Program-made: the position numbers and the translations under genes | The notes under the pieces: model-generated | Database searches by the model: none | Seen by the model: only the letters and a program-made list of their open reading frames with translations | What the model was told of the DNA's origin: nothing | Part shown: piece by piece, positions 52,368-63,984 of the stretch | Position numbering within the stretch: position 1 is the stretch's first letter | How the letters are laid out: each line of letters opens with the position of its first letter | Origin: Escherichia coli | GTDB lineage: Bacteria > Pseudomonadota > Gammaproteobacteria > Enterobacterales > Enterobacteriaceae | DNA length: 64,000 nucleotides | Strand: one strand, 5' to 3' | Assembly: GCF_041886205.1 (NCBI RefSeq) | Contig: NZ_CP169029.1

Positions 52368-55300
52368 TTACGCCTCCTCTTCATGACGGGCAAAGCGGCT
52401 TTTGGTCCACAATGCCAGGCGGTCGAACAGCAGATAAATCACCGGCGTGGTGAACAGCGTCAGCACCTGGCTGACAATCAGGCCGCCGACCATGCCGATA
52501 CCTAACGGACGACGCAGTTCCGCGCCGACCCCGGTACTCAACATCAGCGGCAGCGCGCCAAGCAGAGCCGCCAGGGTGGTCATCAGGATCGGACGAAAAC
52601 GCAACAGACAAGCCTGGTAGATTGCCTCGCGCGGCGACATGCCTTGCTCGCGCTCGGCAGCCAGCGCGAAGTCGATCATCATGATGGCGTTCTTCTTCAC
52701 GATACCGATCAGCAAAATAATGCCGATAATCGCAATCACATCCAGTTCGCTACCAGCAATCAGCAACGCCAGCAGTGCGCCAACCCCTGCGGTGGGTAGC
52801 GTCGAGAGAATGGTGATCGGGTGAATAAAGCTCTCGTACAGAATGCCGAGCACGATATACATCGCCACCACCGCCGCGACAATCAGCCAGACAGTGCTGC
52901 CCAGCGCCGACTGGAAGGCGAGGGTGCTGCCCTGGAACTGCGTGGTGATATCCACCGGCAGATTCAGCGTCTTTTCGGTGTCCATAATCGCCTGCACCGC
53001 ATCGCCCAGCGAATAGTTATCCGGCACGTTAAAGGAGATGGTCGTTACCGGGAACTGATCCAGATGGTTGATGGAGAGCGGCGCAAAACGCTGCTCAATT
53101 TTGGCAATTGAGCTTAGCGGCACCACGCCGCCGTCGCTGCTGGTCAGGCGAATGGTATCCAGCGCCGCGAGGCCTGGGGTATTTTCGGTGTTGTGCTCCA
53201 GCACCACGCGATACTGGTTGGCCTGAGTATAAATAGTGGAAATCAGCCGCTGACCAAACGCGTTGTACAGGGCGTTATCGACATCCGCCATGCTGATCCC
53301 CAGACGGCTGGCGCTGTCGCGATCAACATTGACATACGCCACCAGCCCTTTGTCCTGCCAGTCGCTGGAGACATCAGAAAGCTGTGGCAGTTGCTGGAGT
53401 TTTTCCATCAACTGTGGCACCCAGGTACTGAGCGCATCCAGTGACGTGGCCTGCAAGGTAAACTGGTACTGGGTGCGGCTGACCTGAGTATCAATAGTCA
53501 GATCCTGCGTTGGTTGCAGGAAGAGATCGACGCCCGGCACTTTATCTACCGCCGTTTGCAGACGGGCGATGACTTTTTGCACCCGATCATCACGTTCATC
53601 CAACGGTTTGAGGTTGATTTGTAAACGTGCACTGTTCAGCGACGGGTTAGTGCCATCAACGCCAACAAATGAGGTCAGGCTTTGCACTGCCGGATCCTGC
53701 AAAATCACGTCCGCGACCTGGCGTTGTCGCTGGGCCATATTGGCAAAGGAGCTGGATTGCGGTGCCTGCAAAGTGCCCTGAATAATGCCATTGTCCTGTA
53801 CCGGGAAGAAACCTTTCGGAATGAACACCCACAGCAGCACGCTAAGCAGCAGCGTGCTGAGTGCCACGCTTAAGGTCAGCCACGGATGATTCAGCACTTT
53901 CGCCAGTCCACGACCATAGGCGGCGATTATCCTGTCGAACATTTTTTCCGAGGCACGGGAGAAGCGGTTCTGTTTACGCAACGACTCCTGGCTGAGCATC
54001 CGCGCGCACATCATCGGTGTCAGGGTCAGCGACACCACCGCTGAGATCAAAATCGCTACCGCCAGGGTAATAGCAAATTCGCGGAACAGTCGCCCGACGA
54101 TATCGCCCATAAACAGCAGTGGGATCAACACCGCAATCAGTGAGAAGGTCAGCGAGATAATGGTAAAGCCGATTTCACCTGCGCCCTTGAGCGCCGCCGC
54201 CAACGGTTTTTCGCCTTTTTCGATATAGCGGGAAATGTTTTCGATCACCACGATGGCGTCATCGACCACGAATCCGGTGGCGATAGTTAACGCCATCAGT
54301 GTCAGGTTATTGATTGAAAAATCGAGAAACACCATAACCGCGAAAGTGCCGATTAACGACAGCGGTACAGCAACACCGGGAATGATGGTCGCCGGAATAT
54401 TGCGCAAAAACAGGTAGATAATCATGACTACCAGCGCGATAGCCATCATCAATTCAAACTGAGTATCATCGACGGATGCGCGGATATTGGTGGTGCGATC
54501 GGAAAGCACTGTCACCTTCACCGATTTCGGCAGACTCTCAGTGAGCTGTGGCAGCATCTGCCGAATGCTGTCGGCGGTGGAGATAATGTTAGCACCGGGC
54601 TGGCGCTGAACATTCATCACAATGGCCTGTTCTTTGTTCGCCCACGCGCCGAGCCAGCTGTTTTCTGCACCTTGCTCTACAGTTGCGACATCGCCCAGAC
54701 GAATTGGCGCGCCGTTCTGGTAGGCGATGATTAGCTGGCGATACTCTTCGGCGGATTGCATCTGGTCGTTCGCGGAAAGCGTGACCGCACGGGAAGGGCC
54801 GTCGAGGCTACCTTTTGCCGAGTTAACGTTAGCGCCGGTAATGGCGGTGCGCACGGTTTCGCTGGTCAGGCCGAGGGCGGCAATCGCCTGAGCGTTAAGT
54901 TTGACGCGAACAGCCGGACGCTGACCGCCGGAAAGCGTCACCAGGCCGACGCCGGAAATCTGCGAGATTTTCTGCGCGACGCGGGTTTCCACCATATCTT
55001 CCACTTGCGTCATCGGCATGGCGGTTGAGGTGACGGCGAGCGTCATGATCGGCGGATCTGCCGGGTTCACTTTGCTGTAAACCGGCGGGTTAGGCAGATC
55101 GCTCGGCAACAAGTTGGTCGCAGCGTTAATCGCGGCCTGCACTTCCTGCTCGGCGACATCGAGCGGTAATGTTAGCTGGAACTGCAAAGTGATAACTGAC
55201 GCACCGCCGGAACTTTGCGACGACATCTGTTTCAGGCCAGACATCTGCCCGAACTGGCGTTCTAGCGGCGCGGTAACGGCAGAGGTCATGACATCCGGGC

Positions 55301-55490
55301 TGGCACCTGGGTAGAGCGTGACCACCTGAATGGTCGGATAGTCCACTTCCGGCAGCGCCGAAACGGGCAGGGCGCGATAACCGATAATCCCGGCGAGTAA
55401 GATCGCCACCATCAGCAGCGTGGTGGCCACAGGACGCATAATAAACAGGCGCGACGGGCCGCCTGTGCTGCTCGGGGGTAACACCTGCAT
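52368..55490 (-). CDS. mdtB: RND efflux pump subunit MdtB
   Basis: 1040-aa RND permease. Its start shares 1 nt with the mdtA stop (TGATG). Confidence 0.95.
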
Positions 55491-56737
55491 CAGGAGCGTG
55501 CTCCTTTTTTCGCGTATTCGCGGCTGGTGGCTTTCTCTTCCGGAGTAGTGGCGCTCTGGGCTTCCACCACTTCCACTTTCGCCCCTTCGGTCAGGCGATC
55601 AATGCCGTCTGTCACCACGCGATCGCCCGCAGAAATACCTGCACGGATCACCACTTTCTGACTGTCCTGAATGCCCGGCGTCACCAGATGTTTGCTGACC
55701 TTGTTTTCGCTATTCAGCACCCAGACAAAATGGCCTTCATTGCCCATTTGCAGGGCGGCTGTTGGGATCACTACGGCGTTTTGTTCGGTGTCGACTAACA
55801 TGCGCGCGTTAACAAACTGATTGGGAAACAGCGCATCATCCTGATTATTAAAGCGTGCTTTCACTTTAATCGTACCGGTAGTGGCATCGATTTGGTTATC
55901 TAGACTTAACAGCGTGCCTTCACTTAATTTCTTCGAGTTGGTGCGATCCCAGGCTTCTACCACCAGCGGTTTTCCGGCTTTCTGCGCCTGCACTACGGTA
56001 GCGATATCGCTTTCCGGCAGGGTAAAGACTAAATCGATAGGATGCGTCTGGGTGATCACCACGATCCCGGTGGTATCACCACTGGAGATTTGGTTACCAA
56101 CATCAACCTGCTTGAGACCAACGCGACCATCGACTGGTGCGGTAATCCGGCTCCAGTCGAGTTGCAGCTGCGCGCTGGCAACGCTTGCTTCATCAGCCTT
56201 AATGGTGCCTTCGGTTTCACTGACCAGCGCCTGTTGGGCATCCAGCTCCTGGCGGGAAACGAGATTGGTTTTTGCCAGTTGTTGATAACGCGCCAGGTCA
56301 CGGCGGGCGTTGGCAAGCGTGGCTTTATCTTTTGCCAGTTGGCCCTGGGCTTGTGCTAATGCAACTTTGAACTGGCTGGGGTCAATTTCTGCCAGTAAAT
56401 CGCCTGCTTTGACCTGCTGGCCTTCCTGGAAATGTAACGCTATCAGTTGGCCGTCCACGCGGCTGCGCACCGTAACGGTATTAGCGGCGGTAATGGTGCC
56501 AAGCCCGGTGAGGTAACGCGGAACTGCCTGTTCTACGGCGGTCGCCGCCTGAACCGGGGCTAATGGGCCGGAACGCATACCACGTCGACCACCCGCTGGC
56601 GATTGCTGCGCTTGTTTCGTCGCCCCTGGGGCTGCACTCCGGGAGTCATTGCGGCCTTGCCAGAACCAGAATGCGGCGATGGCGGCGATAACCACCACGA
56701 TTACGATTACCCAACGGGATTTATAACTACCTTTCAT
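55490..56737 (-). CDS. mdtA: RND membrane-fusion protein MdtA (415 aa)
   Basis: ORF 55490..56884. The start is taken at [23 protein letters not shown]. Confidence 0.93.
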
Positions 56738-56790
56738 CGTTAAGAGTTTCTCTTCCTGAAACGTTTCGCGGAATGATACTAGTGTAGCCA

Positions 56791-56808
56791 GCCAATAAGG
56801 GAGAAAAA
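56791..56808 (-). promoter_or_regulatory. BaeR-box-like sequence upstream of mdtA
   Basis: The minus strand reads TTTTTCTCCCTTATTGGC. This is close to the BaeR consensus TTTTTCTCCATDATTGGC as I recall it. It lies about 55-70 nt upstream of the mdtA ATG. Confidence 0.6.
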
Positions 56809-56971
56809 TGGAGGAATTATGAAACACTGTCTGGAATCGTCTGAATGACGGGCACATTTGCGAGCACGCATCCAGTAATAACACAGGAAACTATTTTATC
56901 TACGCGTTAGCGATAGACTGCTTGCATGGCGAAAGGAGGTAAGCCGACGATTTCAGCGGGACGCTGAAACG

Positions 56972-57108
56972 GGAAAGCCCCTCCCGAGGAAGGGGCCATA
57001 AATAAGGAAAGGGTCATGATGAAGCTACTCATCATCGTGGTGCTCTTAGTCATAAGCTTCCCCGCTTACTAAGACTACCAGGGCGGGGGAAACCCCGCTC
57101 TACCCTCA
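56972..57108 (-). ncRNA. Sib antisense antitoxin sRNA, copy 1 (ends approximate, +/-10 nt)
   Basis: Minus-strand promoter: TTGACA (57143-57138), a 17-nt spacer, TACTTT (57120-57115). The terminator hairpin GCCCCTTCC/GGGAGGGGC (56977-56996) is followed by TTTCCC. It is fully antisense to the ibs ORF. Confidence 0.7.
57016..57072 (+). CDS. ibsB: Ibs-family hydrophobic toxin peptide, MMKLLIIVVLLVISFPAY (18 aa)
   Basis: A short ORF with AAGG upstream. Its sequence equals the recalled IbsB-type peptide. Assigning A/B symbols within a 4-copy array is arbitrary. Confidence 0.8.
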   Translation: MMKLLIIVVLLVISFPAY

Positions 57109-57299
57109 CTCCTGAAAGTATGCCTTCACGATAAGATTGTCAATCCGCAGGCTTTGTAGTCTGCGATCCTGCCAGCAAATATTCTTTGCGAGTCGTTACG
57201 CAATAATCACAGAGGAAACTATTTTATTCACGCGTTAGCGATAGACTGCATTCAGGGCGAAAGGAGGTAAGCCGATGATTTCAGCGGGACGCTGAAACG

Positions 57300-57437
57300 G
57301 GAAAGCCTCTCCCGGAGAAGAGGGCTTTTAATAAGGAAAGGGTTATGATGAAGCTACTCATCATCGTGGTGCTCTTAGTGATTAGCTACCCAGCATACTA
57401 AGACTACCAGGGCGGGGGAAACCCCGCTCTACCCTCA
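57300..57437 (-). ncRNA. Sib antisense sRNA, copy 2 (ends approximate)
   Basis: TTGACA (57472-57467), 17 nt, TACTTT (57449-57444). The terminator hairpin is a variant with a bulge (AGCCTCTCCCGGAGAAGAGGGCT). Confidence 0.65.
57345..57401 (+). CDS. Ibs-family toxin peptide, MMKLLIIVVLLVISYPAY
   Basis: The equivalent ORF in repeat unit 2. Confidence 0.75.
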   Translation: MMKLLIIVVLLVISYPAY

Positions 57438-57628
57438 TTCCTGAAAGTATGCCTTCACGGTCAGATTGTCAATCTGCAGGCTTTGCAGTCTGCGATCCTG
57501 CCAGCAAATATTCTTTGCGAGACGTTACGCAATAATCACACTGGAAACTATTTTATCCGCAAGTCAGCGATAGACTGCATACAGGGCGAAAGGAGGTAAG
57601 CCGACGATTTCAGCGGGACGCTGAAACG

Positions 57629-57765
57629 GGAAAGCCCCTCCCGAGGAAGGGGCCATAAATAAGGAATGGGTCATGATGAAGTGGATCATCATCGTGGTGC
57701 TCTTAGTCATAAGCTTCCCGGCTTACTAAGACTACCAGGGCGGGGGAAACCCCGCTCTACCCTCA
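57629..57765 (-). ncRNA. Sib antisense sRNA, copy 3 (ends approximate)
   Basis: Same promoter and terminator architecture as copy 1 (-10 at 57772-57777 on the plus-strand coordinate). Confidence 0.65.
57673..57729 (+). CDS. Ibs-family toxin peptide, MMKWIIIVVLLVISFPAY
   Basis: The equivalent ORF in repeat unit 3. Confidence 0.75.
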   Translation: MMKWIIIVVLLVISFPAY

Positions 57766-57956
57766 CTCCTGAAAGTATGCCTTCACGGTCAGATTGTCAA
57801 TCCGCAGGCTTTGTAGTCTGCGATCCTGCCAGCAAATATTCTTTGCGAGTCGTTACGCAATAATCACACTTGAAACTATTTTATCCGCAAGTCAACGATA
57901 GACTGCATACAGGGCGAAAGGAGGTAAGCCGACGATTTCAGCGGGACGCTGAAACG

Positions 57957-58093
57957 GGAAAGCCCCTCCCGAAGAAGGGGCATTAAATAAGGAAAGGGTC
58001 ATGATGAAGATACTCATCATCGTGGTGCTCTTAGTGATTAGCTACCCAGCATACTAAGACTACCAGGGCGGGGGAAACCCCGCTCTACCCTCA
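57957..58093 (-). ncRNA. Sib antisense sRNA, copy 4 (ends approximate)
   Basis: TTGACA, a 17-nt spacer and TACTTT are retained even though the flanking repeat sequence diverges here. Confidence 0.65.
58001..58057 (+). CDS. Ibs-family toxin peptide, MMKILIIVVLLVISYPAY
   Basis: The equivalent ORF in repeat unit 4. Confidence 0.75.
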   Translation: MMKILIIVVLLVISYPAY

Positions 58094-58274
58094 CTCCTGA
58101 AAGTATGTCACTCAACCCTTGTTGTCAATCTGTAAGCCCACGTTCTTGCGAGGCGAATAGCAAAATTATCTACGCCGCCGGGCCTAATTCTGAAAGTTTC
58201 TTCGTTTGCTCTTATTTCATTATTGCAGTCGGTATGATACCGGACCTCAATAATTCTCTAAGAAAGGATTTCTT

Positions 58275-58934
58275 ATGAGCGAACAAATCACGTTTGCCAC
58301 CAGCGATTTTGCCAGTAACCCGGAACCACGTTGCCCCTGCATTCTGCTGCTGGATGTTTCTGGCTCGATGAGCGGCAGACCTATTAATGAACTTAACGCC
58401 GGATTGGTTACCTTTCGCGATGAGCTGCTTGCCGATCCGCTGGCCTTAAAAAGAGTGGAACTCGGTATTGTGACGTTCGGCCCGGTGCATGTGGAACAAC
58501 CCTTTACCAGCGCCGCTAATTTTTTCCCGCCCATCCTGTTTGCCCAGGGCGATACACCAATGGGGGCCGCCATTACCAAAGCCCTGGATATGGTTGAAGA
58601 GCGGAAACGTGAGTATCGTGCAAATGGTATTTCGTATTATCGCCCGTGGATTTTCCTGATCACCGATGGTGCACCAACCGATGAGTGGCAGGCTGCCGCC
58701 AACAAAGTGTTTCAGGGGGAAGAAGATAAGAAGTTTGCTTTCTTTTCCATTGGTGTTCAGGGGGCGGATATGAAGACGCTGGCACAAATCAGCGTTCGTC
58801 AGCCTTTGCCTCTGCAAGGATTACAATTCCGTGAACTGTTTAGCTGGTTATCCAGTTCGCTGCGTTCGGTTTCCCGCTCCACGCCGGGAACGGAAGTTGT
58901 GCTGGAAGCGCCAAAAGGCTGGACGTCAGTGTGA
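58275..58934 (+). CDS. yegL: TerY-like von Willebrand factor A (vWA) domain protein
   Basis: 219 aa with MIDAS residues [11 protein letters not shown] ... GDTPMG ... [10 protein letters not shown]. Its stop overlaps the yegK start (GTGA at 58931). Confidence 0.92.
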
Positions 58935-59692
58935 GCTGGCGTCTGGTTTATGCATCCGTTGTTGGAACGTCGCACATTAGCGCTGATTTACCTTGTCAGG
59001 ATGCCTGCCAGATGCAGGTTGCCTGGCTAAATGACCAGCAGCCATTATTGTCGGTATTTGTCGCTGATGGCGCAGGCAGTGTCTCGCAGGGTGGCGAAGG
59101 CGCGATGCTCGCCGTCAATGAAGCGATGGCTTATATGTCGCAAAAAGTGCAGGGTGGGGAATTGGGGCTTAATGATGTCCTCGCCACGGATATTGTACTG
59201 ACTATTCGTCAGCGACTTTTTGCCGAGGCGGAAGCCAAAGAATTAGCGGTTCGCGATTTTGCCTGCACATTTCTGGGACTGATTTCATCGCCTGACGGCA
59301 CCTTGATTATGCAGATTGGCGATGGCGGCGTGGTGGTGGATTTTGGTCACGGTCTGCAATTGCCGCTTACGCCGATGGTGGGTGAATATGCCAATATGAC
59401 GCATTTCATTAGCGATGAAGATGCTGTTTCCAGACTGGAAACTTTCACCAGCAATGAGCGTGCGCATAAAGTTGCAGCATTTACGGATGGTATTCAGCGA
59501 CTGGCGTTAAATATGCTGGATAATTCTCCGCATGTGCCTTTCTTTACCCCGTTTTTCAATGGACTGGCGGCAGCAACGCAGGAACAACTCGATTTATTAC
59601 CTGAATTGTTAAAGCAGTTTTTGTCCAGCCCGGCGGTAAACGAGCGTACCGATGATGATAAAACGTTGGCACTGGCGCTGTGGTTACCATGA
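58931..59692 (+). CDS. yegK: PP2C-like Ser/Thr protein phosphatase
   Basis: 253 aa with [17 protein letters not shown] and FTDG acidic/metal-binding motifs of the PP2C_2 type. It is recalled as PphC. Confidence 0.9.
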
Positions 59693-61629
59693 AACCCACT
59701 TTATATACTGCTACTGGTGAGTGCGTTACGCCAGGCCGTGAACTGGGCAAAGGTGGTGAAGGCGCGGTTTATGATATCGAGGAGTTTGTCGATAGCGTCG
59801 CCAAGATTTATCACACGCCGCCACCCGCCTTAAAACAGGACAAACTTGCCTTTATGGCTGCGACAGCTGACGCGCAGTTGTTGAATTATGTCGCCTGGCC
59901 GCAGGCAACGCTTCACGGTGGACGAGGCGGAAAAGTTATCGGTTTTATGATGCCAAAAGTTTCTGGTAAAGAACCGATTCATATGATCTATAGCCCGGCA
60001 CATCGTCGCCAGAGTTACCCTCATTGTGCGTGGGATTTTCTACTCTATGTTGCGCGCAATATTGCTTCATCTTTTGCTACGGTTCACGAGCACGGGCACG
60101 TCGTGGGTGACGTAAACCAGAACAGTTTTATGGTAGGTCGCGACAGCAAAGTGGTACTGATTGATAGCGACTCCTTTCAGATTAACGCCAATGGCACACT
60201 GCATTTATGCGAAGTCGGCGTGTCGCATTTTACGCCGCCAGAGCTACAAACCTTGTCGTCATTTGTCGGCTTTGAACGCACAGAAAATCACGATAATTTT
60301 GGCCTTGCGTTGCTGATTTTTCACGTCTTGTTTGGTGGCCGGCATCCTTATTCTGGTGTGCCGCTTATCTCTGATGCGGGTAATGCGCTGGAGACGGATA
60401 TTACCCATTTCCGTTATGCCTACGCGTCAGATAATCAGCGACGTGGTTTAAAACCGCCGCCACGATCGATTCCGCTATCGATGTTACCGAGTGATGTTGA
60501 AGCCATGTTTCAGCAGGCATTCACGGAAAGTGGCGTGGCAACCGGGCGTCCGACGGCTAAAGCGTGGGTAGCGGCACTTGATTCTCTGCGCCAACAGTTA
60601 AAGAAATGTCCCGTTTCGGCAATGCATGTTTATCCCGCTCATTTGACCGACTGCCCGTGGTGTGCGCTGGATAATCAAGGCGTTATCTATTTTATTGATC
60701 TCGGCGAAGAGGTCATTACCACCAGCGGTGATTTTGTGCTGGCGAAAGTCTGGGCGATGGTGATGGCGTCAGTAGCACCGCCAGCATTGCAATTGCCATT
60801 ACCCGATCATTTCCAACCGACTGGCAGGCCGCTTCCTTTAGGCCTGTTACGGCGCGAATACATCATTCTGATTGAGATCGCACTGTCAGCGTTATCGCTG
60901 TTGCTTTGCGGCCTTCAGGCAGAACCGCGTTATATTATTTTGGTTCCTGTGCTGTCGGCTATCTGGATTATTGGCAGTCTGACAAGCAAAGCGTACAAAG
61001 CAGAAGTTCAGCAACGCCGTGAGGCATTTAATCGCGCGAAAATGGACTATGACCATTTATTCAGCCAGATCCAACAGTTGGGCGGGCTGGAAGGTTTTAT
61101 CGCCAAACGGACGATGCTCGAAAAAATGAAGGACGAAATGCTCGGGTTACCGGAAGAAGAAAAACGTGCTCTGGCAGCACTTCACGACACCGCAAGGAAA
61201 CGGCAGAAGCAGAAGTTTCTGGAGGGATTTTTTATTGATGTTGCCTCTATTCCCGGCGTTGGCCCTGCGCGTAAAGCGGCGTTACGGTCCTTTGGTATTG
61301 AAACAGCAGCGGATGTTACCCGTCGTGGGGTTAAGCAAGTGAAAGGGTTTGGTGATCATCTGACCCAGGCAGTTATCGACTGGAAAGCAAGTTGCGAACG
61401 CCGTTTTGTGTTCAGGCCGAATGAAGCGGTAACGCCAGCAGACAGACAAGCGGTAATGGCGAAAATGACCGCCAAACGACATCGGCTGGAATCGACGTTG
61501 ACTGTCGACGCGACAGAGTTGCAGCGATTCCGCCTTCATGCTCCAGCACGGACCATGCCGTTGATGGAACCGTTACGTCAGGCGGCAGAAAAACTGGCTC
61601 AGGCGCAGGCTGATTTAAGCCGCTGCTGA
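59689..61629 (+). CDS. yegI: Ser/Thr protein kinase with transmembrane and C-terminal helix-hairpin-helix modules
   Basis: ORF 59680..61629 (GTG). I prefer ATG 59689, which overlaps the yegK stop as ATGA. Motifs are the Gly loop GKGGEGAVY, Lys VAKIY, catalytic loop GDVNQNS, DSD (DFG-like) and TPPE (APE-like). Two hydrophobic helices span residues ~393-436. HhH repeats are IPGVGPARKAALRSFGI and VKGFGDHLTQAVIDW. Confidence 0.9.
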   Translation: MKPTLYTATGECVTPGRELGKGGEGAVYDIEEFVDSVAKIYHTPPPALKQDKLAFMAATADAQLLNYVAWPQATLHGGRGGKVIGFMMPKVSGKEPIHMIYSPAHRRQSYPHCAWDFLLYVARNIASSFATVHEHGHVVGDVNQNSFMVGRDSKVVLIDSDSFQINANGTLHLCEVGVSHFTPPELQTLSSFVGFERTENHDNFGLALLIFHVLFGGRHPYSGVPLISDAGNALETDITHFRYAYASDNQRRGLKPPPRSIPLSMLPSDVEAMFQQAFTESGVATGRPTAKAWVAALDSLRQQLKKCPVSAMHVYPAHLTDCPWCALDNQGVIYFIDLGEEVITTSGDFVLAKVWAMVMASVAPPALQLPLPDHFQPTGRPLPLGLLRREYIILIEIALSALSLLLCGLQAEPRYIILVPVLSAIWIIGSLTSKAYKAEVQQRREAFNRAKMDYDHLFSQIQQLGGLEGFIAKRTMLEKMKDEMLGLPEEEKRALAALHDTARKRQKQKFLEGFFIDVASIPGVGPARKAALRSFGIETAADVTRRGVKQVKGFGDHLTQAVIDWKASCERRFVFRPNEAVTPADRQAVMAKMTAKRHRLESTLTVDATELQRFRLHAPARTMPLMEPLRQAAEKLAQAQADLSRC

Positions 61630-61640
61630 GCCATTTTCTT

Positions 61641-62993
61641 TTAACGAAACACCACTTCCGCCCAGCGTGCCAGCCCGGCGGTGACGGAGCCAAAGTCATC
61701 GCCGCCTGCAATCGGAATTCCCGGCAACTGTTCTGCCAGCGCTTTTTTAATCAGCGGCGAACGGGCGCTACCGCCGGTCAGGTAGATAACGTCCGGTTTT
61801 TCCTGGGCGTTATCCAGGGCCAGTTGCACCTGTTCCAGAATCCGCGCCAGTGGCTGGCTGAGGGCGCTTTCCAGCCCTTGCTGGCTAATCAGCGTAGCCA
61901 GTTCATCGCTGATAAACGGCAGTGAGGCGCGGGTTTCCGCTACGCTTGAAAGAGCAATTTTGCACTCTTCTGCGCTACGCACCAGGCGATAGCTTAAACG
62001 CTGACGCCAGACTTTCTGTAGCAGGGCCACTTTTTCCGGTTCGCGGGCATCGCGTACCAGATCGTTAAGCAGACGACCGTTGGCACTACTGTAGAAATCA
62101 CTCTGCGCAGGTACGTCGTTGATGGCAACCGCATTCCACCACGGCAGAATCGGCAGGGCGATGCCTTTTTCGGTTTCGCCACCCATGCCCAGTAACGGCA
62201 TCAGGTTTTTAAACGCCAGTGCGATGTCCAGATCGTTACCGCCAATACGGCAACCACTGTGACCCAGCAGGCTGGCTTCACGATCGAGACGCGAACGCCA
62301 CTGCGGCCCCATCAGCAGCAATGAACAGTCAGTCGTACCACCGCCGATATCCACCACCAGCACCCGTTTTTCTTCCTGCAAGGTGGCTTCGTAATCCAGC
62401 CCAGCCGCGACCGGCTCGTACTGGAATACCACGTCCCTGAATCCGGCACGCTTCGCCGCGCGTTCCAGAATCCCTTGCGCCTGGGCGTTTGCTTCATCGC
62501 CGCCCAGCCCCTGGAAGTTGATCGGGCGACCAATCACCGCCTGAGTAATCGCTTCTGGCAGCTGCGCCTGCGCCTGCTGGCGAATGTGCAACATCATTGC
62601 GCAGACCAGATCCTCAAACAGCGCTACCTGCTGCGGTTTTAAGCCGCTGGCACCGAGGAACGATTTTGGTGATTTCACAAACCACACTTCTTCTGGATCA
62701 TCAATGTACTGTGCCAGTGAGGAAAGACCGAACTGCACGCTTTTCGCCGTAACATCGATATCTTCTTCGCGGTTATAACGAATCGCCCGACGTAACAGCG
62801 CCTGCGTTTCATCGTCGTCTGCCGGAACATCATGATGGCGGTACAGCCATTCACTTACTGCTTCACGCGTTGGCGCGCAAAGCATTGAAGGCAGCAGCGT
62901 GCTGTCGTTTTCCATTTTCAGTAATTGCGGTTTACCGTCACGCATGACCGCCACTGAACAGTTTGCTGTACCGTAATCAAAACCAATAAACAC
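61641..62993 (-). CDS. yegD: Hsp70/actin-fold ATPase YegD (nucleotide-binding domain only)
   Basis: 450 aa with FIGFDYGTANCSVA, VVDIGGGTTDCSL and IYLTGGSARSPLI, the Hsp70 phosphate-1, phosphate-2 and adenosine motifs. Confidence 0.93.
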   Translation of the reverse strand: MFIGFDYGTANCSVAVMRDGKPQLLKMENDSTLLPSMLCAPTREAVSEWLYRHHDVPADDDETQALLRRAIRYNREEDIDVTAKSVQFGLSSLAQYIDDPEEVWFVKSPKSFLGASGLKPQQVALFEDLVCAMMLHIRQQAQAQLPEAITQAVIGRPINFQGLGGDEANAQAQGILERAAKRAGFRDVVFQYEPVAAGLDYEATLQEEKRVLVVDIGGGTTDCSLLLMGPQWRSRLDREASLLGHSGCRIGGNDLDIALAFKNLMPLLGMGGETEKGIALPILPWWNAVAINDVPAQSDFYSSANGRLLNDLVRDAREPEKVALLQKVWRQRLSYRLVRSAEECKIALSSVAETRASLPFISDELATLISQQGLESALSQPLARILEQVQLALDNAQEKPDVIYLTGGSARSPLIKKALAEQLPGIPIAGGDDFGSVTAGLARWAEVVFR

Positions 62994-63066
62994 GAATTAA
63001 TCCCCATGCCGGTGAAGAAGGGGCGTGACTTTAGCGAAATGTTGCCGTCGCGACAACCGGAATATG

Positions 63067-63079
63067 AAAGCAAAGCGTA
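63067..63079 (+). promoter_or_regulatory. Ada-box-like element in the alkA promoter
   Basis: AAAGCAAAGCGTA compared with the recalled Ada consensus AAANNAAAGCGCA (one mismatch). It lies about 50 nt upstream of the alkA ATG. Confidence 0.45.
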
Positions 63080-63126
63080 GCGTCTGAATAACGTTTATGC
63101 TGAAAGCGGATGAATAAGGAGATGCG

Positions 63127-63984
63127 ATGTATACCCTGAACTGGCAGCCGCCGTATGACTGGTCGTGGATGTTGGGATTTCTCGCCGCCCGTGCGGTGAG
63201 TGGTGTGGAAACGGTCGCTGAGGATTATTATGCCCGTAGTCTGGCGGTGGGCGAATATCGCGGCGTGGTGACTGCTATTCCGGATATAGCCCGCCATACT
63301 CTGCACATAAATTTAAGTGCAGGTTTAGAACCCGTTGCCGCTGAGTGTCTGGCGAAAATGAGCCGCCTGTTTGATCTGCAATGTAACCCGCAGATTGTTA
63401 ACGGTGCGTTGGGCAAGTTAGGCGCGGCGCGGCCCGGATTGCGTTTACCCGGCTGTATTGATGCTTTTGAGCAGGGTGTGCGGGCGATTTTAGGCCAACT
63501 GGTGAGCGTGGCGATGGCGGCAAAATTGACTGCCAAAGTTGTACAGCTTTATGGCGAACGGCTGGATGATTTTCCGGAGTATATCTGCTTCCCCACGCCT
63601 CAGCGGCTGGCAGCAGCCGACCCGCAGGCATTAAAAGCGTTAGGCATGCCGTTGAAACGGGCAGAGGCACTGATTCATCTGGCAAATGCGGCGCTGGAGG
63701 GCAGCTTACCAATGACAATTCCGGGCGATGTGGAGCAGGCGATGAAAACGCTGCAAACTTTTCCGGGTATCGGGCGCTGGACGGCGAATTATTTCGCTTT
63801 GCGTGGCTGGCAGGCGAAAGATGTTTTTCTGCCGGATGATTATCTGATTAAACAGCGATTTCCGGGGATGACACCGGCACAAATCCGCCGTTATGCCGAG
63901 CGCTGGAAGCCCTGGCGTTCTTATGCGCTGTTGCATATCTGGTATACGGAAGGCTGGCAACCAGACGGAACGGACGAATTGTAG
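63127..63984 (+). CDS. alkA: 3-methyladenine DNA glycosylase II
   Basis: 285 aa, MYTLNWQPPYDWSWMLGFLAARAV..., with the HhH-GPD motif (FPGIGRWTANYFALRG ... D). The C-terminus (…GWQPDGTDEL) differs slightly from what I recall for K-12. Confidence 0.93.
   Translation: MYTLNWQPPYDWSWMLGFLAARAVSGVETVAEDYYARSLAVGEYRGVVTAIPDIARHTLHINLSAGLEPVAAECLAKMSRLFDLQCNPQIVNGALGKLGAARPGLRLPGCIDAFEQGVRAILGQLVSVAMAAKLTAKVVQLYGERLDDFPEYICFPTPQRLAAADPQALKALGMPLKRAEALIHLANAALEGSLPMTIPGDVEQAMKTLQTFPGIGRWTANYFALRGWQAKDVFLPDDYLIKQRFPGMTPAQIRRYAERWKPWRSYALLHIWYTEGWQPDGTDEL

Follow-up and report, generated by a model that had tools for sequence, protein, structure and literature searches.

We analyzed the yegL-pphC-yegI gene triad at positions 58275-61629 of a 64,000-nucleotide stretch of an Escherichia coli genome (contig NZ_CP169029.1, assembly GCF_041886205.1), which at its full length is referred to here as the window. 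The triad encodes a protein with a von Willebrand factor A (vWA) domain, a PP2C-type phosphatase, and an atypical Ser/Thr kinase, and our comparisons show that it is a compact, divergent, stripped-down member of the TerY-phosphorylation (TerY-P) class. The locus and its enzymes were already known. What is new is that the triad is a distinct variant of TerY-P, in which the kinase has a membrane hairpin, a stalk, and a probable helix-hairpin-helix (HhH) tip, and that this variant is separate from the type tested against phages and is missed by PADLOC. Also new is that the same three-gene cassette forms, outside Escherichia, a large, self-contained mobile family with a defense-island context. Most likely, the triad is a phosphorylation switch that is anchored in the membrane and acts on DNA that is foreign or damaged, and we assign a probability of about 45% to the complete mechanism proposed below.

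Based on the list of open reading frames (ORFs) and the sequence, the triad spans 3355 bp and consists of three co-directional genes on the + strand. These are yegL (58275-58934), which encodes a VWA protein of 219 aa, pphC, also known as yegK (58931-59692), which encodes a PP2C of 253 aa and has a GTG start codon overlapping the yegL stop codon, and yegI (59689-61629), which encodes an atypical Ser/Thr kinase of 646 aa counted from its ATG. The three genes are translationally coupled, with overlaps of 4 nt each (GTGA at 58931-58934 and ATGA at 59689-59692). A first-pass annotation, made from the sequence of the window alone, had placed the three genes and both overlaps at exactly these coordinates, and the gene identities that it proposed match the annotation yegL/pphC/yegI in E. 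coli genomes. An alternative in-frame GTG start codon for yegI at 59680 was rejected because the N-termini of homologues give it no backing.

YegI holds the features that set the triad apart. Its kinase domain (aa 1-300; 59689-60588) appears to be of an atypical Hanks type, with a VGDxxQxS catalytic loop and a DSD motif replacing DFG. YegI, in which the HRD and DFG motifs are replaced, had no match to Pfam Pkinase (PF00069) even at an E value of 10; its relatives score 33-42 bits against the Pkinase gathering cutoff of 31.7. An AlphaFold2 model of YegI resembled kinase folds, including that of PknB (Foldseek, E about 5e-5), and K39, D141, S153, and D159-S162 were invariant across the alignment of YegI homologues. 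Kinase activity of YegI has been published and requires K39 and D141 (bioRxiv 10.1101/819920); according to the published work, YegI prefers Mn, needs the unusual DSD motif, and autophosphorylates S153, S160, and S162. The description of YegI as a Hanks-like kinase in the first-pass annotation is compatible with the fold, the invariant K39 and D141, and the published activity, but the E. coli protein itself lacks a Pkinase match.

After the kinase domain follows a Cys/His knuckle (C307, H313, C322, and C325; 60607-60663) that is invariant in 39 sequences, and the pattern C..H..CP[WYF]C is kept in 141 of the 150 top representatives of the YegI family. As judged from these residues, the knuckle is a zinc-ribbon-like module and a putative metal site. 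The segments of highest hydropathy in YegI form a transmembrane hairpin (aa 391-409 and 415-431, connected by the loop QAEPR; 60859-60981), of which the hydrophobicity but not the sequence is conserved across the family. This conserved hairpin agrees with the topology published on the basis of PhoA-LacZ fusions, i.e., a two-pass inner-membrane protein with cytoplasmic N- and C-terminal ends.

The remainder of YegI consists of the outgoing helices of an antiparallel coiled-coil stalk (aa 434-512; 60988-61224), a probable tandem helix-hairpin-helix, (HhH)2, at the stalk tip (aa 515-571; 61231-61401) with the hairpin motifs IPGVGPARKAAL and VKGFGDHLTQAV, and the return helix of the stalk (aa 583-645, followed by the stop codon; 61435-61629). 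In the model of the C-terminal 216 residues (predicted local distance difference test score, pLDDT, 92), the antiparallel coiled-coil stalk ends in a small tip globule that holds two G-h-G hairpin motifs. The HhH region of DNA polymerase IV in NCBIfam matched the tip at 0.0019, and annotation sources name the protein "helix-hairpin-helix domain-containing." These data suggest that the tip is probably an (HhH)2 fold and, as such, a putative DNA-binding module. An apparent similarity of aa 431-646 (60979-61626) to CROPs, the repeats with which clostridial toxins bind cell walls, was rejected as a repeat artifact; the signal, obtained with a profile against PDB sequences, was the sum of sub-threshold repeat matches via a W..s..rf.FNp..A motif.

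PphC is a minimal PP2C-type Ser/Thr phosphatase (Pfam PP2C_2, 8e-52), as had been proposed from the sequence, and alignment identified the acidic residues D24, D46, D131, D186, and D241-243 as invariant. Published experiments established that PphC has Mn-dependent PP2C activity and that YegI is dephosphorylated by it in vitro. YegL is a cytoplasmic TerY-like vWA protein (Pfam VWA, 6e-10) and the most conserved of the three proteins, with 74-85% identity to beta-proteobacterial copies. Its metal ion-dependent adhesion site (MIDAS) motif is complete, in line with the first-pass annotation, and comprises DVSGS (aa 27-31), GDTPMG (aa 92-97), and TDG (aa 130-132). The DxSxS residues D27, S29, and S31 (58353-58367), T94 (58554-58556), and D131 (58665-58667) do not vary among eight homologues that represent three proteobacterial classes and include gamma- and beta-proteobacterial copies and one on a Pseudomonas megaplasmid. 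The metal-binding TerY_C domain was not detected in YegL. Close to its C-terminus, YegL has a Ser/Thr-rich segment (aa 192-207; 58848-58895) in which S193, S195, S198, S200, S202, T203, and T206 are invariant in the homologue alignment and which aligns in part with the TerY of ter operons. We infer that this tail is a candidate phosphorylation site.

As summarized in two later articles (PMC11090510 and PMC4978471), the TerY-P triad of Anantharaman et al. (2012) consists of a TerY-like vWA protein, a PP2C, and a zinc-ribbon kinase and was first described around tellurite-resistance operons. All of these elements are present in the window, i.e., a vWA protein with a MIDAS, an adjacent PP2C, and a knuckle-bearing kinase, encoded co-directionally in the order vWA-PP2C-kinase. 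For direct comparison by BLASTP, we used the ter triad of the IncHI2 plasmid pEC22-CTX-M-15 (locus L027). YegL matched the TerY with a TerY_C domain at 1e-21 over aa 19-202 and a shorter second TerY at 3e-18, YegK matched the PP2C at 4e-6, and YegI matched the kinase at 3e-5 in an alignment that spans the C-lobe and the Cys knuckle, with CP[WY]C opposite CPYC. The two loci share the three protein types and their order, and all three proteins are homologous; in both, the vWA protein has a MIDAS and the kinase is followed by a Cys knuckle. They differ in size and accessory parts. The ter TerY has 346 aa including TerY_C, whereas YegL has neither this length nor this domain; the ter PP2C has 545 aa, including an N-terminal extension of ~280 residues that is absent from PphC; and the ter kinase has 499 aa, whereas the longer YegI adds the membrane hairpin, the coiled-coil stalk, and the HhH tip. 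Using tblastn, we found YegL-like TerY genes on 2294 plasmids. A DUF4236 gene is present in the ter cluster of L027 and also near the triad of locus L020; it is the sole family of the ter neighborhood that we saw beside the triad.

The TerY-P system with reported anti-phage activity belongs to another branch. As cited second-hand, Gao et al. (2020) described an anti-phage TerY-P system, which reportedly confers protection from T7-like phages while most cells survive and for which PADLOC v2 has the models TerY, PP2C, and STK_OB. Searching PADLOC v2 with E values up to 10, the sole TerY-P match was that of YegL to "TerY" at 0.013 (13 bits); YegK and YegI had no match to the PP2C and STK_OB models, and the weak PADLOC matches of YegI were to PD-T4-6 kinases. 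PADLOC v2 also did not call the ter TerY, PP2C, and kinase of L027 (6969-13197) as TerY-P, with the kinase giving weak generic kinase matches, which implies that the PADLOC definition of TerY-P covers only the Gao-type branch. Because PADLOC misses the ter proteins as well, its negative result on the window was ambiguous at first, and it became meaningful with a positive control. This control, a metagenome contig (L035, 566-3798), encodes a vWA protein of 277 aa, a PP2C of 240 aa, and a kinase of 556 aa, which matched the PADLOC models TerY, PP2C, and STK_OB at 1.7e-159, 2.1e-87, and 7.4e-230, respectively. The first-pass annotation had set profile assignment to the TerY-P families beforehand as one test of its TerY-P hypothesis; PADLOC v2 gave no such assignment for the window and strong ones for the control. 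What stands of the TerY-P identity is therefore the homology to the ter-operon triad with the same gene order, but not membership in the Gao-type, phage-tested branch.

In both branches, a cassette of three genes encodes, in this order, a vWA protein with a MIDAS motif, a PP2C, and a kinase, and the kinase combines a membrane anchor with a module that putatively binds nucleic acids. However, the kinase of the Gao type has an oligonucleotide/oligosaccharide-binding (OB) fold and a C-terminal tail anchor, which in L035 is the hydrophobic segment IPWWVWIVGLWVLIAIF, whereas YegI has the knuckle, the internal hairpin, the stalk, and the HhH tip; the vWA protein of L035 is also longer than YegL. Pfam searches detected no OB family at the C-terminus of YegI, where the hairpin, stalk, and HhH tip are found instead. 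A kinase joined to a membrane tether and to a module for nucleic-acid binding thus appears to be a recurring theme, built from unrelated parts in the two branches. Costa et al. (2024) cloned a P. aeruginosa TerY-P system and published the sequencing primers, one of which matches L035 exactly and another with 3 mismatches. We considered this P. aeruginosa variant as a possible member of the YegI family and rejected it because the primer-matching L035 is PADLOC-type and not YegLKI-type. The Costa primers had no matches in IMG/VR or in a first metagenome scan, whereas a second metagenome scan gave L035; the primer peptides had no match among 498 YegI-family proteins, and a search seeded with Pseudomonas detected no YegI-family member in P. 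aeruginosa.

Among other systems, the restriction-associated triads of the CoCoNuT literature, compared here by description only, likewise comprise a TerY-like vWA protein, a PP2C, and a zinc-ribbon kinase. However, none of the CoCoNuT genes CnuB, CnuC, CnuH, and CnuE adjoins the triad in the window or at related loci, and a C-terminal extension like that of YegI is not described in that literature. PD-T4-6, Stk2, PknB-PstP, and PrkC-PrpC share with the triad what appears to be a Hanks-type fold, autophosphorylation of the activation loop, and reversal by a cognate PP2C, but have no vWA partner. In comparison with classical eukaryotic-like Ser/Thr kinases, YegI has non-canonical catalytic and DFG motifs and no extracytoplasmic sensor; it has the cytoplasmic stalk and HhH tip instead.

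The YegI family is large. A YegI profile search at E<=0.001 retrieved 11131 cluster representatives, of which 4286 also pass E<=1e-30. Among the 150 best, 108 have a length of 630-670 aa. Full-length relatives with 57-62% identity are present in Klebsiella, Piscinibacter, Chromobacterium, and many metagenomes, and relatives with 30-50% identity are encoded on 54 non-Escherichia plasmids or megaplasmids; none were detected in GenBank phages and IMG/VR. At every locus read, a vWA gene for ~219 aa is followed by a PP2C gene for ~253 aa (212-248 aa in some calls) and then by the kinase gene, and the same gene sizes and order are found in Klebsiella, Piscinibacter, Chromobacterium, and Pseudomonas megaplasmids. 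The order vWA-PP2C-kinase was recorded at L012, L014-L016, L018-L021, L027, L028, L030, L031, and L033. These data show that the three genes travel as a self-contained unit; yegD, which lies next to the triad in E. coli, was rejected as a fourth component, as it has no linkage to the triad outside Escherichia.

Recognized defense genes lie within 8 kb of the triad in 7 of the 12 annotated non-Escherichia contexts. These are GmrSD, type I restriction-modification, BrnA, and SymE at L012; BrxR, JetB, McrA-like, and SLFN-helicase genes at L014; AbiH and a KAP NTPase at L015, where Tn7-like genes adjoin them; HsdRSM and Mrr at L019; BrxR, DUF499, DUF1156, and SNF2 genes at L028; GmrSD and PIN-TPR-GreABC at L030; and E2/ThiF/JAB and dCTP deaminase genes at L031. 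PADLOC, applied to 49 flanking proteins, gave strong matches; for example, a GmrSD-like protein matched at 2e-213, and the best of the type I specificity subunits reached 1e-228. The enrichment of defense contexts is a judgment and not a statistic.

In cassettes of the beta-proteobacterial type, a conserved basic protein of 69-70 aa that belongs to no Pfam family (MKFGMRKPS...GWGWLTNPKRAAYNRVYSRTTFS...) is encoded upstream of the vWA gene. It was found at eight loci, which represent seven distinct contexts, as L033 and L034 contain the same cassette. At four of these loci, its gene and the vWA gene are separated by one for an SNase-family nuclease (basic protein and nuclease at L014, 5719-6474; L020, 5700-6501; L028, 5685-6467; and L030, 5691-6473); the 69-70-aa protein is also encoded at L017 (7208-7414), L019 (6075-6284), L033 (5777-5986), and L034 (843-1052). 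Neither protein is present in E. coli. The two may be fourth and fifth components of the system or a co-travelling module.

The status of the triad within E. coli is different. According to megablast with the 3355-bp triad as the query, 5416 of the 5426 complete E. coli genomes have it as a single chromosomal copy, and 5402 of the 5426 retain at least 80% of the region. In every inspected E. coli genome, it is surrounded by mdtABC and the ibs/sib array on one side and yegD-alkA on the other. Based on this near-universal presence and the position between core genes, the triad is core and not accessory, contrary to the "accessory-looking neighborhood" suggested by the first-pass annotation. Synteny and single-copy presence extend to other Escherichia species; the triad was fixed in the genus long ago. 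A genome scan with a single protein returned Escherichia and Shigella only, and a YegL protein search returned only E. coli variants. The G+C content of the triad is 0.50-0.53, and that of E. coli genomes is usually about 0.51. Among six diverse E. coli genomes, all three ORFs are full length in 6/6, the synonymous substitution rate (dS) of the triad is similar to that of the flanking genes, and its nonsynonymous rate (dN) is ~10x that of mdtB. The low dN/dS ratios of 0.064 for yegL, 0.108 for pphC, and 0.174 for yegI support that the triad genes are maintained by purifying selection. Apparent second copies with 46-47% identity in two E. coli genomes (L008 and L010) were rejected; L008 contains fragmented ORFs only, and L010 was assumed to be alike.

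The operon exists in two forms. A divergently oriented gene, yegJ, is inserted between pphC and yegI in 1888-1933 of the 5426 genomes, including K-12 (7483-7944 in L026), and is absent from the corresponding junction in the window (59689-59692). The uninterrupted operon of the window is the majority form, present in ~65% of complete E. coli genomes. We note that the yegJ insertion is not confined to K strains, contrary to a statement in the literature. The window triad matches that of strain 2017.17.03CC (NZ_AP027829), with 100% identity for yegL and pphC and 98.8% for yegI, and its flanks match the yegJ-bearing strain GZM7, with 99.7% identity for mdtB and 100% for both yegD and alkA. Identity of at least 99% was found in 13 genomes over the triad vs 1655 over the neighboring mdtB segment. 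The region 52368-63984 of the window is a recombinational mosaic.

The mechanism that we propose builds on these parts. The hairpin would hold YegI at the inner membrane, with the ~80-residue coiled-coil stalk reaching into the cytoplasm and presenting the HhH tip. DNA at the membrane face, such as abnormal DNA or the genome of a phage or plasmid on its way into the cell, would bind the tip and alter the geometry of the stalk or dimer, which would lead to trans-autophosphorylation of YegI at S153, S160, and S162. Active YegI would then phosphorylate YegL on its invariant tail rich in Ser and Thr, perhaps along with further proteins, and the MIDAS metal site of YegL would capture or release a partner. 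PphC would keep the switch off and reset it. The output would be interference with invading DNA or phage development, from an operon that in E. coli would normally be silent. In our assessment, the case for defense rests on where the relatives sit and not on similarity to tested systems.

Several observations weigh against this proposal. Pfam HHH_5 matched the YegI tip at 2e-4 to 9e-4, and did so in 11 of 18 family members, but these matches are under the gathering score. Fold searches with the C-terminal model returned only coiled-coil or stalk-and-tip analogues, e.g., SMC hinges, and we judged these matches to reflect topology and not homology. Five of the 12 non-Escherichia contexts are without recognizable defense genes. 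YegL, YegK, and YegI matched the L035 proteins at 3e-4, 0.75, and 0.03, respectively, by BLASTP; with similarity this marginal, the phage-protective TerY-P is a distant branch, so that its phage phenotype is not transferable by homology and cannot be borrowed for the E. coli locus. Defense systems are usually patchy within a species, and the triad is present in 99.8% of complete E. coli genomes with a near-average G+C content. E. coli B is the classical host of T1-T7. The B strain REL606 carries the intact operon (bioRxiv 10.1101/819920), which implies that the operon is no barrier to T1-T7 at native expression. Published work on the triad is limited to the biochemistry of the kinase and phosphatase, as the first-pass annotation had stated; it describes no inducing condition, and expression was not detected under the conditions tried. 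We found no phage, stress, or substrate phenotype for yegL-pphC-yegI, and no paper connecting yegI with phages, in the searchable literature. Finally, a published study offers a link to DNA, as it ranked both YegL and YegI among the strong "DNA damage-up" proteins, either of which raised endogenous DNA damage when overproduced; this phenotype is common to the overproduced neighbors MdtA and MdtB, suggesting that the effect of YegL and YegI may be a membrane-stress artifact.

Some of these observations would fit a domesticated housekeeping or stress-signaling module that is no longer, or never was, immune in Escherichia, in which YegL would be a substrate or adaptor and which would tune host physiology, e.g., DNA-damage, envelope, or stationary-phase responses. 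We regard this alternative as possible but doubtful. It would account for the near-universal, single-copy, and syntenic presence of the triad in E. coli and other Escherichia species, for the purifying selection, flank-like dS, and near-genomic G+C content, and for the DNA damage-up phenotype upon overproduction. It also agrees with the weak stationary-phase expression published for REL606, with recurrent yegI mutations in long-term evolution, as cited second-hand within the PphC literature, and with a 2026 paper in which yegJ overexpression induced the neighboring yegD. It is at odds with the mobility of the cassette outside Escherichia, where it occurs on megaplasmids and beside transposition, restriction, and abortive-infection genes, and with the lack of linkage of yegD to the triad there; moreover, the literature yielded no host substrate or growth phenotype.

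That the operon is a silent relic, transcriptionally silenced and drifting to loss with no present function in E. coli, is improbable. The undetected transcription, the H-NS site published for the yegI-yegJ spacer of K-12, and the splitting of the operon by yegJ in about a third of genomes (see above) could be read in this way. So could the spacer upstream of yegL (58129-58274), in which we detected no sigma-70 consensus on the + strand, in agreement with the published failure to detect expression. However, the dN/dS ratios of 0.06-0.17, the full-length ORFs in six diverse genomes, and the retention of the region in nearly all genomes are not those of genes drifting to loss; the catalytic, MIDAS, and knuckle residues are intact, and the purified proteins are active according to published work. 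A sensor of metal or tellurite-type chemical stress, in which the MIDAS of YegL would report metal status to the kinase/phosphatase pair, is very improbable. The closest named relatives of the three proteins are the TerY, PP2C, and kinase genes within tellurite-resistance operons, and both YegI and PphC use Mn in published assays, but neither TerD, TerZ, TerC, or TerW genes nor biosynthetic ter genes adjoin the triad in the window or at 12 related loci, and YegL is devoid of the TerY_C metal-binding domain. We favor the switch mechanism proposed above.

A bolder extension of the proposed switch is that the YegLKI cassette is an unrecognized and very widespread immune or DNA-surveillance system, with YegI as a membrane-anchored direct DNA sensor whose HhH tip, borne on the coiled-coil stalk, would detect genomes that come in through the inner membrane, phosphorylation of the MIDAS-bearing vWA protein as its output, and a silent core copy in E. 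coli. In this strong form, we consider it unlikely. If the defense reading is correct, a system that comprises thousands of protein clusters and is carried by nearly every E. coli escapes the current defense-finding tools. Irrespective of its function, YegI/PphC is among the very few eukaryote-like kinase/phosphatase pairs of E. coli, and the analysis supplies concrete parts, namely the HhH tip, coiled-coil stalk, and Cys knuckle in YegI and the Ser/Thr tail and MIDAS site in YegL. We note that K-12, the usual test strain, has the interrupted operon.

The neighbors of the triad in the window are those named in the first-pass annotation. Four tandem units of Sib RNA and ibs toxin-antitoxin genes with a spacing of ~328 bp lie upstream of yegL (57001-58128). 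The spacer between the last Sib RNA and yegL presumably contains the operon promoter, and a Shine-Dalgarno sequence, AAGGA, is located 7 nt 5' of the yegL ATG on the + strand. The Sib/ibs array at this site comprises two to four units in other inspected E. coli genomes, and in one of them IS421 is inserted in the array. On the other side, the Hsp70-like gene yegD (61641-62993) is convergent with yegI, with stop codons 11 nt apart. As no terminator-like hairpin was detected between the two stop codons (61627-61643), the convergent transcripts of yegI and yegD would overlap. Further downstream, alkA (63127-63984) comprises 858 nt in the window vs 849 nt in three other compared E. coli genomes.

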